IMG/VR virus record: IMGVR_UViG_3300037454_000475
Span: 32,001-96,000 of that record
Reading direction: 5' to 3' (one strand)
DNA: 64,000 nucleotides
From: a virus
Taxonomy: Duplodnaviria > Caudoviricetes
The notes beneath the pieces were generated by a model. The model searched no databases. It was not told the origin of the DNA and worked only from the letters and a program-made list of their open reading frames with translations. This document shows, piece by piece, positions 3,228 to 23,204 of the stretch. The first letter of the stretch is position 1; the number at the start of each line of letters is the position of its first letter. A program made the position numbers and the translations under genes.

Positions 3228-3334
3228 ATGGTCGAGGGGCTGCTCGGCGTCACGCCGCCCCCTCGTGAGTGTTCCTTGGTGTCTTACGGATTTACAGCTG
3301 ATTACCGAGGTAGCAAAGCACACTGAACAAGCCG

Positions 3335-3417
3335 CGGAGAGTGGAGGTCTCGAACCCCATACGTTGCCGTACCAACCGCCTTCCAAACGGCGTTGCCGCC
3401 TTGGCAATTCACTCTCC
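3335..3417 (-). tRNA. tRNA-Ser(GGA), 8/4 fold
   Basis: Acceptor GGAGAGTG/CACTCTCC, 4-bp T stem, long variable arm, G73. Confidence 0.85.
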
Positions 3418-10267: not shown

Positions 10268-10790
10268 ACGCATGTGCACTGCGCTTTTGATTGTTTGGTG
10301 TATTAACGCCACACCGGCGTATTGGACGCCGATCAGATGACCGCATCGGCGCGCGGACTCTTGCTGTTAACGCAATAGTTGCAACGACCTTTCATGATTA
10401 GACTTTGCCTTCGTCGTCCCGGCGCCGTCCCTACTGGATCTGTTGGAGTCTGTCCCACTTCCGTTCCGTTCCTGTAAGAGTATCGAACATCCGTGGTAAG
10501 CCGTCTTTCGGGAACCAAATATGTTTATCGCTTCCGGCATTGCATCGGCCCTCTCTTTGTGAATATATGGTCGTCTTTGGGCTTCTTGGCGGATTGGCTG
10601 GATGTTATCGCCTTTTCGGCCACGTGATCTTTCACAGCATCAGCGCCTTTCAATCCTGATGGTTTCCTGTTACATCGGGTGCCTATCATTTCAGCTACCT
10701 TTCATTTCGGCAGGAGTTAATTGAGGGGCGGACACGGGTCGGCCCAGGGCGGCAAAAGCCGCGGAATTACTCCACCCAGTTTAATCACAA
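10268..10790 (-). ncRNA. Candidate large (~520 nt) structured RNA
   Basis: Non-coding interval between tRNA elements, many short stems with purine-rich/GAAA loops. Confidence 0.5.
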
Positions 10791-14693: not shown

Positions 14694-14700
14694 ATATATG

Positions 14701-14783
14701 CGGAGAGCAGAGGAATCGAACCTCATACGTTGCCGTACACACAATTTAGCAGAATGGTTCCTTGCCTGAAGGATTTACTCTCC
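14701..14783 (-). tRNA. tRNA-Ser(GCT), 8/4 fold
   Basis: GGAGAGTA/TGCTCTCC; GAGG-TTCGATT-CCTC; 5-bp D stem. Confidence 0.85.
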
Positions 14784-16054: not shown

Positions 16055-16140
16055 TGGCGGAGAATTGAGGTATCGATCCCCATACAGAATGTACAGCACG
16101 TTTTCAAGACGGCTCCCCTCACCATCAGGGTTAATTCTCC
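16055..16140 (-). tRNA. tRNA-Ser(TGA), 8/4 fold, CCA encoded
   Basis: Paralog of 6152-6233; loop CT TGA AA. Confidence 0.87.
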
Positions 16141-16142
16141 AA

Positions 16143-16540
16143 TGGAGCCGCTTTCGAGTGATCCCGGACACTACCCCGGCGGGCGCGGCATACCCATATG
16201 TGTTTGTGCGATTGTATCCTATAAAAGGTGGGTGAGAACTACGCCCTCACCCGTGGCTGTGCTTCGGTGCCTAACTTTAGGCAGCGATAGCCATTTCAGT
16301 ACGTGCGCCAGTTATTGCGCGGACACCATCTCTTTTGTTCCTTCGGCCGCTGTCAAAACCAAACACCCCCATATGAGAAGGTTTATACGATACCTACAAA
16401 CGTTTGGGGACACCGTATGGCATCGATCCACCACCGATTTTTACGAAATCGGAAACGTCTTTAATTGGCGAAAGAGTGGAGGTGACGGGAGTCGAACCCG
16501 TGTCCAAACGGATTATCTAACAAAATACAAACGATTGTGC
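16143..16540 (-). ncRNA. ssrA: Circularly permuted (two-piece) tmRNA; tag (A)GARTEMAIAA
   Basis: Acceptor piece ...GGACACGGGTTCGACTCCCGTCACCTCCA (ends 16477) precedes GGGGGTGTTTGGTTTTGAC (starts 16370); G3:U70; ATAACT then tag ORF 16309-16277. Confidence 0.9.
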
Positions 16541-16719: not shown

Positions 16720-16741
16720 ACTGCGGACGCAGTGGTTTTTG

Positions 16742-16814
16742 CGGGATCAGAAGGAATCGAACCTTCAACCTACGGATTAACAGTCCGGTGCTCTACCGAT
16801 TGAGCTATGAACCC
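16742..16814 (-). tRNA. tRNA-Asn(GTT)
   Basis: Loop CT GTT AA; G73. Confidence 0.94.
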
Positions 16815-17278: not shown

Positions 17279-17354
17279 TGGTGCTCCCGCAGGGACTCGA
17301 ACCCTGAACTCCCGGAGTAAAAGTCCGGTACTCTACCAATTAAGTTACGAGAGC
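17279..17354 (-). tRNA. tRNA-Lys(TTT), CCA encoded
   Basis: CCGGA-CT TTT AC-TCCGG. Confidence 0.95.
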
Positions 17355-17404
17355 CAACGTTTACCTGATTTACCGTCCTTTACGGCTTTACGTTTTCGTC
17401 TCAT
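17345..17404 (-). CDS. Leader mini-ORF MRRKRKAVKDGKSGKRWLS
   Basis: A-rich start context; stop lies inside tRNA-Lys. Confidence 0.5.
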   Translation of the reverse strand: MRRKRKAVKDGKSGKRWLS

Positions 17405-17444
17405 AGCTTAAATGTTTATTTGATTGTTGTTCGCCCTTTAATTA

Positions 17445-17838
17445 AAAACACCCTACGAACGTTGTACTCGGCAACCTCGGATATTGTGGAGGGCCCATCC
17501 ACGGTTTTGACCAGCTAAAGTTTGATGGTGCTTGGTATCCCAATCTCCACTTGCTCGCCTGCGGATGGCGGATGCCGCTGTGGCCCGGCAACTGGCAACG
17601 GAGTACCCATCCGATCAGGGCCGTGCTGTTCCTTGGCCAACACGGATACCATTTAGACCTCCAATAGTTATCGAAACCTGAAGTATCCACCTACCATCAG
17701 GGGAAGTTTGCAACCTTCCCGGGAATCCAGTTTCAACCTCCCGTCCTTTACACCACCTCGCGCATTTCACGGATCAGCCTTCTCCGGAGTTGCCTTCGCT
17801 CTCACGGCCGCGTGGTTCCACGGATTGGAGTATTGTTT
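17445..17838 (-). ncRNA. Candidate ~390-nt structured RNA
   Basis: GC-rich non-coding interval with multiple hairpins. Confidence 0.4.
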
Positions 17839-17841
17839 CTG

Positions 17842-18009
17842 TGATCTCGGTGGGAGTTGAACCCACATTACCATAATCGTTTGCTTTACCACTGCAATGG
17901 TGGGGCGACTAACACGCGTTGTCGCGCTGTCCTCCCCCAAACTTTCAGGTACTACCACTATATCCCAGTGTGAATCTGTTGCAGCATCATCTCTTTGGAG
18001 TACGAGACC
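17842..18009 (-). ncRNA. tRNA scaffold with multiple inserts
   Basis: GGTCTCG/CGAGATC; GTGGG-TTCAACT-CCCAC; expanded D region and extra hairpin. Confidence 0.7.
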
Positions 18010-18020
18010 TTTTAAATATG

Positions 18021-18157
18021 CACCAAGACGAGGATTCGAACCTCGGCCTCAATGTCCTCTCGGGCATTGTATTCTGTCCTCTTTCCATCGTGGCAACTCC
18101 GGCCGGCTGTACAACCAGCTTATTGGTCTTACCACGACTTCATCTAACTACCTTGAT
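18021..18157 (-). ncRNA. tRNA scaffold with ~65-nt D-loop insert and GAGA-capped anticodon arm
   Basis: ATCAAGG/TCTTGGT; CAATGCCC-GAGA-GGACATTG; CGAGG-TTCGAAT-CCTCG. Confidence 0.7.
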
Positions 18158-18341
18158 TGATTGATTATTTCCCTCACTCATCAACCGGTGGTGATTCGCG
18201 ACTCACCACCCGACCCTATTTGCCGGTTCAAACTCTACCGGTGTCGGCTGATTACGTTACGCGGGAGAAGCTACCTCCCTGGAAGGTACTCTACCTTCCC
18301 AAACAGAATTGTTTGTTATGAATGAGTTATTTCCTCAACTT

Positions 18342-18414
18342 GTGGATTGGTGGGATTCGATACCCACATCACGCGGTTGCATACGACCGGAATATTACTT
18401 ATACTTACAATCCA
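18342..18414 (-). ncRNA. tRNA-like RNA with 8-nt T and AC loops
   Basis: TGGATTG/CAATCCA; GTGGG-TATCGAAT-CCCAC. Confidence 0.65.
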
Positions 18415-18720
18415 TCGGCCTCGAGATTACCATACGTTTCTCCTGTTGGCTGTGCACACCAACAACTCCCCTACGGACGCCATCCTCTGTACTCTGTTGA
18501 CTTTCGGTTTACTGCAGCACCTACATGGTCCAACGTTTCCGTGACTTTACGCGACTGGCTCTTGTGAGAAGACCTCGTTATTATCGGACGCTTTTGCATC
18601 GATTCTTTGTCCGATTGCCTCTTAACCTTGTGTTACGCCTGTGTTCCGGTGGCCGGAGTGGTATCTCCCAATCGAGCTTTTGTACCACTGCTAACACTGC
18701 TCTGAAGAGATTCAAACTTG

Positions 18721-18793
18721 AGCGAAGAATGGGACTCGAACCCACGATCTCGACCTTGGCAAGGTCATATTCTACCAACTGAACTACCTTCGC
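18721..18793 (-). tRNA. tRNA-Gly(GCC)
   Basis: Loop TT GCC AA. Confidence 0.95.
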
Positions 18794-18908
18794 ACCGTGG
18801 GGAGGCGATATCTCATCTACCTCCCCGTATATCTTGATCAGCCTTTGACCCACGGTTAATATTCCAGTGAAGGGCAAACCGCATATTATTTCAGGTTGTT
18901 TCGGCTGA

Positions 18909-18947
18909 ATAAGAATCAATCAAATGTCTCCCAATATGTCAAAGAAC
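18909..18947 (-). promoter_or_regulatory. rrn-like leader with boxA (copy 1)
   Basis: 39-bp identity with 11535-11573; preceded by a GGAAC/GTTCC hairpin. Confidence 0.75.
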
Positions 18948-18992
18948 CCTTGTTTTATGTTGGTTGGAACGTTTTATCGTTCCTTTCAACGT

Positions 18993-19024
18993 CTATATAT
19001 AATCAACCTCCTGCGAAACTTAAC
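18993..19024 (-). promoter_or_regulatory. Putative phage promoter GTTAA-N17-TTATATATAG
   Basis: Exact motif. Confidence 0.8.
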
Positions 19025-19091
19025 ACTCTATCGAAACTTTTTTGAAACTTTTTTGTTTTTTGTTCATTTGCAAGTATTTATAATAGGTATT

Positions 19092-19123
19092 AAAAAAGGT
19101 CATCCGTTTTTGCGAATGACCTT
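19092..19123 (-). terminator. Attenuator terminator upstream of the tRNA island
   Basis: AAGGTCATTCG-CAAAAA-CGGATGACCTT followed by a T run. Confidence 0.85.
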
Positions 19124-19149
19124 CTTGTGTGGGGGTTATATTTCAAATT

Positions 19150-19158
19150 GTCATTCGC
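19150..19158 (-). promoter_or_regulatory. Antiterminator strand GCGAATGAC
   Basis: Perfect 9-bp complement of the terminator 5' arm GTCATTCGC; starts 6 nt after the leader stop. Confidence 0.7.
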
Positions 19159-19164
19159 CTTCTT

Positions 19165-19287
19165 CTATCCCCCTTGCTTGGCATCATAGCCGCAAAATCC
19201 TTCATTACCGAGTACAATGGCGGTATTCATGGCTGCTGGGCGGCTCCATGATTGTTTCAATGTCATTGTATGTAGGGATAAATTCAT
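19165..19287 (-). CDS. Putative attenuator leader peptide (40 aa, all 20 amino acids)
   Basis: MNLSLHTMTLKQSWSRPAAMNTAIVLGNEGFCGYDAKQGG then TAG; A-rich start context. Confidence 0.7.
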   Translation of the reverse strand: MNLSLHTMTLKQSWSRPAAMNTAIVLGNEGFCGYDAKQGG

Positions 19288-19354
19288 CGAATGATTTTTA
19301 ATTCTTTCTAATATGGATAATAGGACAGGTTTTTTAAGTTTTTAACTTTTTTGC

Positions 19355-19396
19355 AAAAAAATAATGGAGACCATTGCTGATCCCCATTATATTTTT
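19355..19396 (-). terminator. Terminator after the OmpA gene
   Basis: ATAATGGGGA...TCTCCATTAT followed by a T run. Confidence 0.65.
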
Positions 19397-19412
19397 GATC
19401 TCCGTGGTTTCG

Positions 19413-20468
19413 TTATTCACGGGTGATCGTTGCGCACCTTGAAAGCTCAACAGTGTCATAGGCATCCAACTTCGTGGTAACCTGAATGTTGGTATACCCA
19501 TTCTGCTCAAGGATGGCTTTCACTGCGGCGGCACGGGCGTTAGCCAAATCGGAGTTGTAATTCTCGGTTCCGGTCTTCGTATCGGCGGATCCAACAATCA
19601 CGATGTTGGCGTTCTTGTCAACATTGGCCATAAAGATATCCAAACGCTGCATCTCCGTGGTAGTAATGGTTGAGCTATTCTTTGCGAAGGTAAGAAGTGT
19701 GTTGTTGGTGTTCACCTCAACAATCTTCTCAACAATCTTTTCGACAATAACGGTATCTCTCTCCACCTCACGGTTCATACATCTCATGCATTCATCGTAC
19801 ATGGTGTAAAGCTCCGAGTATTGCTGGTCGGTATACGTCTTATCGCAGATCACGAAGTTATGGGAACCGGTCTTATTTGACTTAAATCGATAAGCCACGC
19901 CGATGTTGGCCTGAAGATCCGCATGCTTTACCATTGGTTCGATGTGACGGGACTGGAGGATTTCGTGAGATACGACTTGAGGTGTAAACGTAATGTACCA
20001 AGCGCGTTCTTTACCTAAATTGAAATCAAATTCGAGGCCGGCGTTCAATGATATATCGTTGGGGTTACTTGAGTTGAACATATGATCCCATCCGATACCG
20101 GTTACGGTTTGAATTTCAAAAATCCTTGGTTGGCCTTTGTACCCGGCAAACAAATTCATTAGGTTGAACTTGACGTTTCCGTTCAAATTCGTTGCACTGA
20201 TGGCAAAACCGTCCTCGAAGTTAGGTCTCATGTATCCAACCAACGAAAACCCGGTGATAGGGGTAACGTTCTTGCCAAGTTCAAGACCGGCGTTCCAGTC
20301 CAAGGTATTGAACTCAAAATTATCGTAGTTGGAAACAGGGTTGTGAATGGCACCGCCATTGATGCCAACATACATGTTGGAAAAAACACCACCGCGTTCA
20401 ACGGTTTGAGCATTTGTGATTGTGAAAGCCATAAACAAGGCGATCATCAAAGAAATAATTTTCTTCAT
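19413..20468 (-). CDS. OmpA-family outer membrane protein (Bacteroidales type)
   Basis: Signal peptide, beta-barrel region, C-terminal F..NS...GSAD..G...YN..L...RA..V motif. Confidence 0.9.
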   Translation of the reverse strand: MKKIISLMIALFMAFTITNAQTVERGGVFSNMYVGINGGAIHNPVSNYDNFEFNTLDWNAGLELGKNVTPITGFSLVGYMRPNFEDGFAISATNLNGNVKFNLMNLFAGYKGQPRIFEIQTVTGIGWDHMFNSSNPNDISLNAGLEFDFNLGKERAWYITFTPQVVSHEILQSRHIEPMVKHADLQANIGVAYRFKSNKTGSHNFVICDKTYTDQQYSELYTMYDECMRCMNREVERDTVIVEKIVEKIVEVNTNNTLLTFAKNSSTITTTEMQRLDIFMANVDKNANIVIVGSADTKTGTENYNSDLANARAAAVKAILEQNGYTNIQVTTKLDAYDTVELSRCATITRE

Positions 20469-22343: not shown

Positions 22344-23204
22344 TTATTCTTCAGATCTTTGTTCGGATAAAACTTGTTCGCCTTGGGTTATCTCCTCCTC
22401 ACCTTCGATATTGTTGTCATATAGGAATGAACGGGACTTGGCCCTGGAGAATGCATATAGCACTGCATGGATTTTTAACTCCTCATATGTTTTTAATTCC
22501 GGATGTTCCTTCTTGGCATGCTCGAGGTTGATTGCATATTGGAAAATGGAATAGTCCACAGTATCCGGTTTGACCTGTTTGAATGTTTCCACGTTTTGAC
22601 ATCCGAGGAGGTGTACCTTTTTGCCGCACTGGCGGGCATAATTCATCATCTTACGGAACTCGTCCCGGTAAAGATGCCAATCCCTTGTCATGGCAAGACC
22701 ACCAATGGCAAGTTTGTCATATAGGTCACTCTCACAAAGACGCTTCCAGTACTCGAATCCTTGGTGCATTTTGAAAACCGGAGTCGGATACCGGCCGGTA
22801 ATCTCCTTGATTTCGTCACGGAGGTAATTCTTGGGCGAAAGAAGATCTTCATCCTTACGGAAATACTCATTATCGAGTTCAAACATCTCACATGGTTTGA
22901 CCACGCGGAGAAGTGCAAGGAATTTACGCCTCATTTTCTCACATGCTTGGTGGAACTTTTCACTATCCGCACCGTATTTGTTTTGAAGCTTGTAAAGGGT
23001 AAAACCTCCGGAGTCGAGATACAAACGTTCCTGACCAACAGTATCATATATGACCTTTGCGGCGTTCTTCGGCATATCCACGGTGGAAATCAATACGGCA
23101 TTATCAAATGTTTTCAAAAGTGTAGGGAGAACCTGTTTCCACCTACCTTTTGAACCACAGGAATATACGAGTCCGCCACCCAGTCCGTATACTAATTTAT
23201 GCAT
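22344..23204 (-). CDS. TGT-fold transglycosylase (DpdA-like)
   Basis: LYLDSGGF, LAIGGL, VHLLG and DTVD motifs of the TGT superfamily. Confidence 0.75.
   Translation of the reverse strand: MHKLVYGLGGGLVYSCGSKGRWKQVLPTLLKTFDNAVLISTVDMPKNAAKVIYDTVGQERLYLDSGGFTLYKLQNKYGADSEKFHQACEKMRRKFLALLRVVKPCEMFELDNEYFRKDEDLLSPKNYLRDEIKEITGRYPTPVFKMHQGFEYWKRLCESDLYDKLAIGGLAMTRDWHLYRDEFRKMMNYARQCGKKVHLLGCQNVETFKQVKPDTVDYSIFQYAINLEHAKKEHPELKTYEELKIHAVLYAFSRAKSRSFLYDNNIEGEEEITQGEQVLSEQRSEE

Follow-up and report, generated by a model that had tools for sequence, protein, structure and literature searches.

A conserved leader ORF and candidate ribosome-dependent attenuator upstream of a phage tRNA island

In a full trp-type attenuator, a 1:2 helix is needed. 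Conservation of the peptide sequence is unusual in classical leader peptides of this kind. A second group of attenuators is found in Firmicutes upstream of antibiotic-resistance genes (bmrB-bmrCD and vmlR of B. subtilis, lmo0919 of Listeria) that are induced by ribosome-targeting drugs; these attenuators reportedly sense general translation stress, as is said to have emerged from the Term-seq work of Dar et al. in 2016. To our knowledge, the control of phage tRNA-island expression is largely unknown. The current view is that these islands offset host tRNA depletion and the action of anticodon nucleases (PMC10264068, PMC11464382, PMC11555353). A search of the published literature found neither a leader peptide containing all amino acids nor a leader attenuator of tRNA operons.

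We analyzed a 64,000-nucleotide stretch (the window) of a 105-kb IMG/VR virus record that is estimated to be 58% complete and whose source is a rumen phage. Upstream of its tRNA island is a module resembling the trpL, hisL, thrL, pheL and ilv leaders, in that a short, probably translated leader precedes a strand common to a predicted antiterminator and an intrinsic terminator. As in trpL-type attenuators, a ribosome at the leader stop would cover the 5′ strand of the antiterminator.

Leader unit, tRNA operon and their promoter-like sites

All elements of the leader unit and the tRNA operon lie on the minus strand of the window. The gene directly upstream of the leader unit (20468-19413) encodes an OmpA-like protein (Pfam OmpA) with a signal peptide, and is divided from the unit by its own intrinsic terminator (19390-19361; 13-pair stem and T run). 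A putative promoter follows (19345-19317; TTAAAA-17 nt-TATTAT), then an A-rich leader of ~23 nt and the leader ORF (protein P0001; 19287-19165). We confirmed the earlier note's description of this ORF: it has 40 codons plus TAG, all 20 residues (11 of them occurring once) and 31 distinct sense codons. Segment 1 (TCATTCG; 19294-19288) lies just 5′ of the start codon and can pair with segment 2 in the minimum free energy (MFE) fold. Segment 2 (GCGAATGAC; 19158-19150), the 5′ strand of the predicted antiterminator, begins 6 nt past the leader stop. It is separated by a 28-nt spacer from segment 3 (GGTCATTCGC; 19121-19112), which is common to antiterminator and terminator; within this spacer, and so in the antiterminator loop, is a CCCCC run (19135-19131) complementary to GGGGG at the end of the ORF. 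After a 6-nt loop comes segment 4 (CGGATGACC; 19106-19098), the terminator strand that pairs with segment 3. These two segments (hairpin 19121-19098) and a T6 tract (19097-19092) form the intrinsic terminator. As had been claimed from the sequence, GCGAATGAC is fully complementary to GTCATTCGC, which lies in the 5′ arm of this hairpin. The whole element spans about 230 nt and is self-contained.

Downstream of the terminator are a second promoter-like site (GTTAAG ... TTATATATAG; 19024-18993), a GGAAC/GTTCC hairpin (18983-18966), a boxA-like leader (18947-18909), assigned to boxA by resemblance only, and the tRNA island (18793-3152). The island contains 39 tRNA/tmRNA genes by default ARAGORN and 49 by relaxed ARAGORN, including a permuted tmRNA. 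The boxA leader and tRNA genes that the earlier note had placed here were thus recovered. A second copy of the promoter-like site, the hairpin and the 39-nt boxA-like leader, at about 11640-11535, precedes the second tRNA block. The promoter copy is near 11640-11610; the similarity starts at the -35 element, and no leader ORF precedes it. In all lineages described below, the hexamers of the tRNA-operon promoter-like site are conserved and its spacer is variable. The tRNA operon therefore appears to have its own conserved promoter downstream of the terminator, and read-through transcripts from the leader unit can only supplement those from this promoter. A caveat to this effect had been raised from the sequence, and it holds for the conserved site at 19024-18993; the other site proposed then (TATAAATA at 19082-19075) was rejected because it is not conserved in the lineages. 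The share of read-through in tRNA-operon output may be small.

The signal peptide and lipoprotein-like N-terminus of neighboring ORFs, together with A-rich leaders lacking SD sequences, suggest a host in the Bacteroidota.

Several other features of the island and its surroundings were observed. Several of the 49 tRNA-like genes found by relaxed ARAGORN have odd anticodon loops. The permuted tmRNA (RF04321, 63 bits) is at window positions 16277-16524 (minus strand), and its tags are variants of GAR..AIAA. It is conserved in L045 (11711-12006), L033 (6978-7357), L038 (7753-8130) and L028 (8005-8381). A stretch of 1.37 kb within the island (17355-18719, minus strand) is without a canonical tRNA or an Rfam match at E up to 1. 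It has three T-arm-like motifs (about 18349-18378, 18017-18053 and 17845-17878) and one odd tRNA-like element by relaxed ARAGORN (18020-18094), and may be tRNA-derived structured RNA. In the most distant relative, L047, the anticodon loop of one tRNA is 8 nt long (ctag; 17304-17376), and a tRNA-Phe has anticodon AAA (10654-10728). In L037, two tandem copies of the tRNA-operon promoter and GGAAC hairpin follow the leader unit (1550-1600 and 1700-1745). A 286-aa protein encoded 3 kb upstream of the leader (22344-23204, minus strand) matched PHROG phrog_887 (E 9e-13), which is annotated as queuine tRNA-ribosyltransferase; all relatives carry a syntenic homologue (287-293 aa).

Conservation and coding signature of the leader ORF

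Homologues of the leader peptide were collected from several sources. The first peptide search gave 2 clusters, and 2 metagenome loci were added. An exhaustive profile search of 1.84 billion representatives gave 4 further proteins, and a profile search of 90% clusters gave additional clusters; a third profile search with the leader peptide gave none. Searches of viral contigs, genome contigs and a phage collection through neighboring proteins or DNA motifs found no relatives, and a scan with the hairpin pattern returned unrelated palindromes only. The resulting set comprises 11 protein clusters with 31 distinct variants (39-49 residues, measured from the common start Met) and DNA from 15 lineages. 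The family consists of uncultured large phages with contigs up to 276 kb.

The order of elements was the same in 15/15 lineages: promoter-like site, ORF, segment 2, spacer, segments 3 and 4, T run and A-rich stretch, and then the promoter-like site GTTAAG ... TTATATATAG, the GGAAC/GTTCC hairpin, the boxA-like CTTTGACATAT motif and tRNA genes. The gene upstream of the module varies by lineage, and may encode an OmpA-like protein, a 54-aa protein, an 81-aa protein or a metallophosphatase. Thus, the module travels with the tRNA island and not with its upstream neighbor. Regardless of the upstream gene, both hexamers of the leader-unit promoter-like site are conserved across lineages and its spacer is variable. 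An OmpA-like gene between a 51-aa gene and the leader was seen only in the window's lineage and L026; in L027, L028 and L029, the leader directly follows other genes. The OmpA-like gene looks like a moron insertion carrying its own terminator. At the extreme start of a 2.2-kb contig (L032, 1-159), the 52-aa variant P0004 has a 12-codon duplication of the leader, which is probably an assembly artefact at the contig end. The leader peptide matched no family in Pfam or PHROG. An Rfam scan of 17300-19450 at E up to 1 gave tRNA matches plus one sub-threshold match overlapping a tRNA gene, so no known Rfam leader or riboswitch family matches the module.

Conservation of the leader ORF was a check proposed in the earlier note, and comparison of the relatives bore it out. 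Pairwise dN/dS was 0.17-0.37, with dS up to 0.8. Indels were codon-sized: Phe31 is lost in L026, one codon is added after Gln38, and two are added in P0010. In the ten closer lineages, variable columns numbered 12, 9 and 19 at the first, second and third codon positions. The start Met is invariant; the internal Met used by the record's own gene call (P0003) is not. Residues W14, E29 and Y34 of the peptide are invariant, H6, T7, G30 and F31 are nearly so, and the C-terminal residues beside the stop are the most variable part. The leader ORF is evidently conserved and evolves as a coding sequence, which indirectly indicates that it is translated. Such conservation of the peptide (dN/dS about 0.2) would suit either a micro-protein with a function of its own or a nascent peptide that acts through its sequence.

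We also weighed the possibility that the ORF is a chance frame in non-coding spacer, with coincidental amino acid content and complementarity, in the light of the frequency of the all-20 property. As a control proposed in the earlier note, we computed this frequency for stop-free 40-codon windows of the 64-kb DNA: 87 of 34812 (0.25%) had all 20 residues. The property is rare, and these 87 occurrences are the one point in favor of a chance frame. In windows of the long proteins encoded by this DNA, the frequency was 0.12% for 40 residues, 1.1% for 45 and 2.3% for 49. Among the 96 ATG ORFs of 36-44 aa in the window, the leader ORF was the only one with all 20. At least 31 distinct codons were found in 2.4% of 40-codon windows of real genes. 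Taken alone, the all-20 property in a single 64-kb window could be due to chance; because its rarity was spotted post hoc, the test must rest on relatives. The comparative data contradict a chance frame, since homologues occur in 11 clusters, dN/dS is well below 1, indels are codon-sized and the helices are conserved. We consider such a frame extremely improbable.

Two mutually exclusive helices and the position of the leader stop

Helix statistics were obtained from an alignment of 14 lineages (A4). Helix 2:3 (antiterminator) can be paired in 126/126 cells. In L037, an AU pair is replaced by GC through a compensatory double change (segment 2 GCGGATGAT, segment 3 GTCATCCGC), and L047 has a GU pair at the same position. 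A double change of the L037 type was matched by 29/500 shuffles, and the covariation rests on that single change. Helix 3:4 (terminator) can be paired in 98.4% of cells. Four of its pairs vary on the segment 4 side only, by wobble-compatible steps, and 8/10 columns of segment 3 are invariant; a fixed segment 3 with a varying segment 4 is expected if segment 3 must suit two partners. Segment 2 is nearly invariant and its flanks are variable, with 19/28 spacer columns changing. This near-invariance extends to lineages in which segment 2 is non-coding (the window, L026, L045 and L047). A 9-bp terminator stem followed by T6-T8 is present in all lineages. By sequence comparison, helices 2:3 and 3:4 are mutually exclusive, with segment 3 in common, and the capacity for both is kept in all 14-15 lineages.

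Calculated dG ranged from -9.6 to -11.2 kcal/mol for helix 2:3 and from -7.2 to -12.2 kcal/mol for helix 3:4, with -12.2 in the window. The two helices are thus of comparable energy, and helix 2:3 was the more stable in seven lineages; in this half of the lineages, the terminator can therefore win only when segment 2 is blocked.

These data bear on the simplest alternative, in which the leader is a stand-alone micro-protein gene, its terminator insulates the operon promoter, and the 2:3 pairing serves mRNA 3′-end stability or is a by-product. Such a gene would account well for a unit having its own promoter-like site and terminator, for a peptide under purifying selection with conserved blocks in order, and for the separate promoter of the operon downstream. 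It leaves unexplained, however, why segment 2 is invariant where non-coding and covaries with segment 3, and why helix 2:3 has a stability equal to or above that of the terminator it excludes; the peptide's failure to match a Pfam or PHROG family also counts against it. We regard a stand-alone gene as a possible but rather unlikely explanation.

For a ribosome-dependent switch, the position of the leader stop is of particular interest. In each of the 14 lineages, the stop codon starts within a range of -13 to +9 nt relative to the first nucleotide of segment 2. Three contexts were found: TAG or TAA 5-9 nt before segment 2, TGA within segment 2, and TAG 4 nt after it. With the stop on or beside the antiterminator strand, a terminating ribosome would favor the terminator. 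The placement is partly forced, because TGA belongs to segment 2 and the spacer is AT-rich.

Folding was performed on transcripts ended after segment 3, the stage at which the choice of helix is made. Without a ribosome, the predicted P(2:3) was 0.97-1.00 in 13/14 lineages. A ribosome footprint centered on the stop reduced it to 0.00 in 10 lineages; the remaining four kept values of 0.15-0.49, and in three of these the stop lies 8-9 nt upstream of segment 2. Folding with a masked ribosome, as suggested in the earlier note, thus gave the anticipated effect for a footprint at the stop codon; however, results with a sliding mask differed between lineages. When the full leader was folded at equilibrium under such a mask, the window sequence favored the terminator except with the mask at codons 37-39, and L028 and L029 favored the antiterminator. 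Sliding-mask folding serves here only to show two near-isoenergetic states, and was not taken as support for an effect of stalling at any codon.

Two further helices are less well kept. The long-range 1:2 helix and an adjoining 9-bp helix, the latter linking the two ends of the ORF, are present in the MFE fold of the window sequence. Across lineages, 76% of their cells can be paired, vs 41-55% in slid controls, and on the basis of the 76% value the 1:2 helix was not counted as a conserved element. The GGGGG/CCCCC helix is not kept in L033, from which both runs are absent.

The same RNA switch could also be operated by a sequence-specific regulatory nascent peptide with TnaC/SecM-like logic, in which the ribosome would stall itself near the stop in response to a ligand or state and hold segment 2 covered or uncovered. 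The conservation of the peptide, with its three invariant and four nearly invariant residues, is unusually strong for a leader, and the stop adjoins segment 2. On the other side, the residues beside the stop are the most variable ones, and no known arrest motif was recognized in the leader peptide. Self-stalling of this kind seems quite improbable to us.

Amino acid composition of the leader and proposed mechanism

The leader ORF has no codon run and no enrichment for one or more sensed amino acids. Its composition had been read as matched to the island. The four Leu codons are indeed all different and correspond to island tRNA-Leu anticodons TAA, TAG, CAA and GAG. The claim that the three Ser codons are readable by island tRNAs was borne out in part. 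Default ARAGORN found zero tRNA-Ser genes in the window; relaxed ARAGORN found Ser(GGA) at 3334-3417 and Ser(GCT) at 14700-14783 (minus strand), both syntenic with clear tRNA-Ser genes of relatives and both scoring under the ARAGORN default threshold and the Rfam gathering score. However, neither default nor relaxed ARAGORN found a tRNA in the island that reads TCA by Watson-Crick pairing, i.e., no Ser(UGA). Overall, 30/31 leader codons are readable, vs about 87-92% of all sense codons. This is unremarkable, since the island reads about 53-56 of 61 sense codons by hand count, and the claimed match between leader codons and island tRNAs was not upheld. Nor does the leader content track the island tRNA set in two relatives. 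The L045 leader is without Cys and Pro, and its island has tRNA-Cys (16723-16798) and tRNA-Pro (16132-16206). In L047 the leader contains the full set of 20, yet over the next 10 kb downstream default ARAGORN detected no tRNA for Cys, Pro, His, Val, Met or Tyr.

Retention of all 20 residues was then evaluated in the relatives. All 20 are kept in 25/31 variants and in 9/12 deep lineages. Cys is missing from P0022 (32 contigs), P0018 and P0034, Cys and Pro from P0017, Arg from P0026, and Ile from P0032. Some residues that occur once were relocated: Phe in L026; Pro in the L028/L029 clade and P0011; His, Cys and Pro in P0012; and Arg and Val in P0014. In conservative simulations, the changed branches and columns were held fixed and the derived residues alone were redrawn. 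On the tree, 25 or more all-20 tips arose with a probability of 0.001 under phage frequencies or BLOSUM-conditional draws, and of 0.012 under uniform draws. When the 12 deep lineages were taken as independent, 9 were observed to have all 20 vs 5.2-6.3 expected (P = 0.0009 with phage frequencies, 0.003 with the derived-residue composition of the family, and 0.03 with uniform draws). The outcome of these simulations depends on an alignment that is short and a tree that is poorly resolved.

The outcome was weaker when only sensor-competent codons were counted. These exclude roughly the last five codons of TGA-type leaders, where a stalled ribosome already covers segment 2. Their number is notably constant, at 38-41 per lineage. 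P0012 lacks Cys in this part, and P0014 lacks Arg and Val; all 20 residues are then kept in 23/31 variants and 7/12 deep lineages, with P from 0.035 (phage frequencies) to 0.22 (uniform). The expectation that relatives keep 20/20 was therefore borne out only in part, more for the whole peptide (25/31 variants, P 0.001-0.03) than for its sensor-competent part. Selection to keep all 20 amino acids is, on this comparison, weakly to moderately supported. We read the all-20 composition as a true tendency whose cause is uncertain, and not as a strict requirement.

We propose that the module is a ribosome-dependent attenuator, through which transcripts from its own promoter enter the tRNA operon when translation lags; we put the chances of this reading at about even. 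In this mechanism, a short unit with its own promoter would be transcribed immediately upstream of the tRNA operon. Nascent segment 3 would pair with segment 2 (9 bp, about -10 kcal/mol) and block the terminator, so that antitermination would be the default and the transcript would continue through the operon promoter and boxA-like leader into the tRNA genes. A ribosome that has completed the leader of 39-49 codons and reached the stop codon would cover segment 2; segment 3 would then pair with segment 4, and transcription would terminate at the T tract. Read-through would be a sign that the leader, in which almost all amino acids are represented, is translated slowly or not at all, and would add to the output of the operon promoter. 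The attenuator logic claimed in the earlier note is retained here as regards the coding ORF, the exclusive helices and the stop geometry, but not as regards the match of codons to the island. We infer the activity of the promoter, the coupling of transcription to translation, and the direction and size of the effect.

Compatible with this attenuator, the leader may in addition be a selected probe of all aminoacyl-tRNAs. Shortage or cleavage of any tRNA would then delay the ribosome, free the antiterminator and raise expression of the whole tRNA set. We consider this extension unlikely. If it is true, decoding and tRNA supply would form a feedback loop triggered by starvation or by host anticodon nucleases. 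If the all-20 composition is selected, the leader would be the first leader-peptide sensor that is general and not amino acid-specific. More broadly, a translated leader and switch before a tRNA island would directly link the decoding speed of ribosomes to transcription of tRNA genes. Natural variants include three stop positions, Cys-less leaders and one compensatory pair; with these and its small, self-contained form, the element is directly testable with reporters.

The module differs from trpL-type attenuators in several respects. The phage leader is without a codon run for one or a few amino acids, and most of its residues occur once or twice. The regulated genes would be phage tRNAs and not biosynthetic enzymes, and a second promoter separates the attenuator from the operon. 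Further differences are the weakness of the 1:2 helix and the conservation of the peptide sequence. With the attenuators of bmrB-bmrCD, vmlR and lmo0919, the module shares a leader ORF without a diagnostic codon run. In those systems, a stall anywhere upstream is said to free the antiterminator, so that read-through reports general impairment of translation, and the same would hold here. The target is different, being a phage tRNA island. By analogy, the logic of the phage module appears closest to that of these general-translation-stress attenuators.
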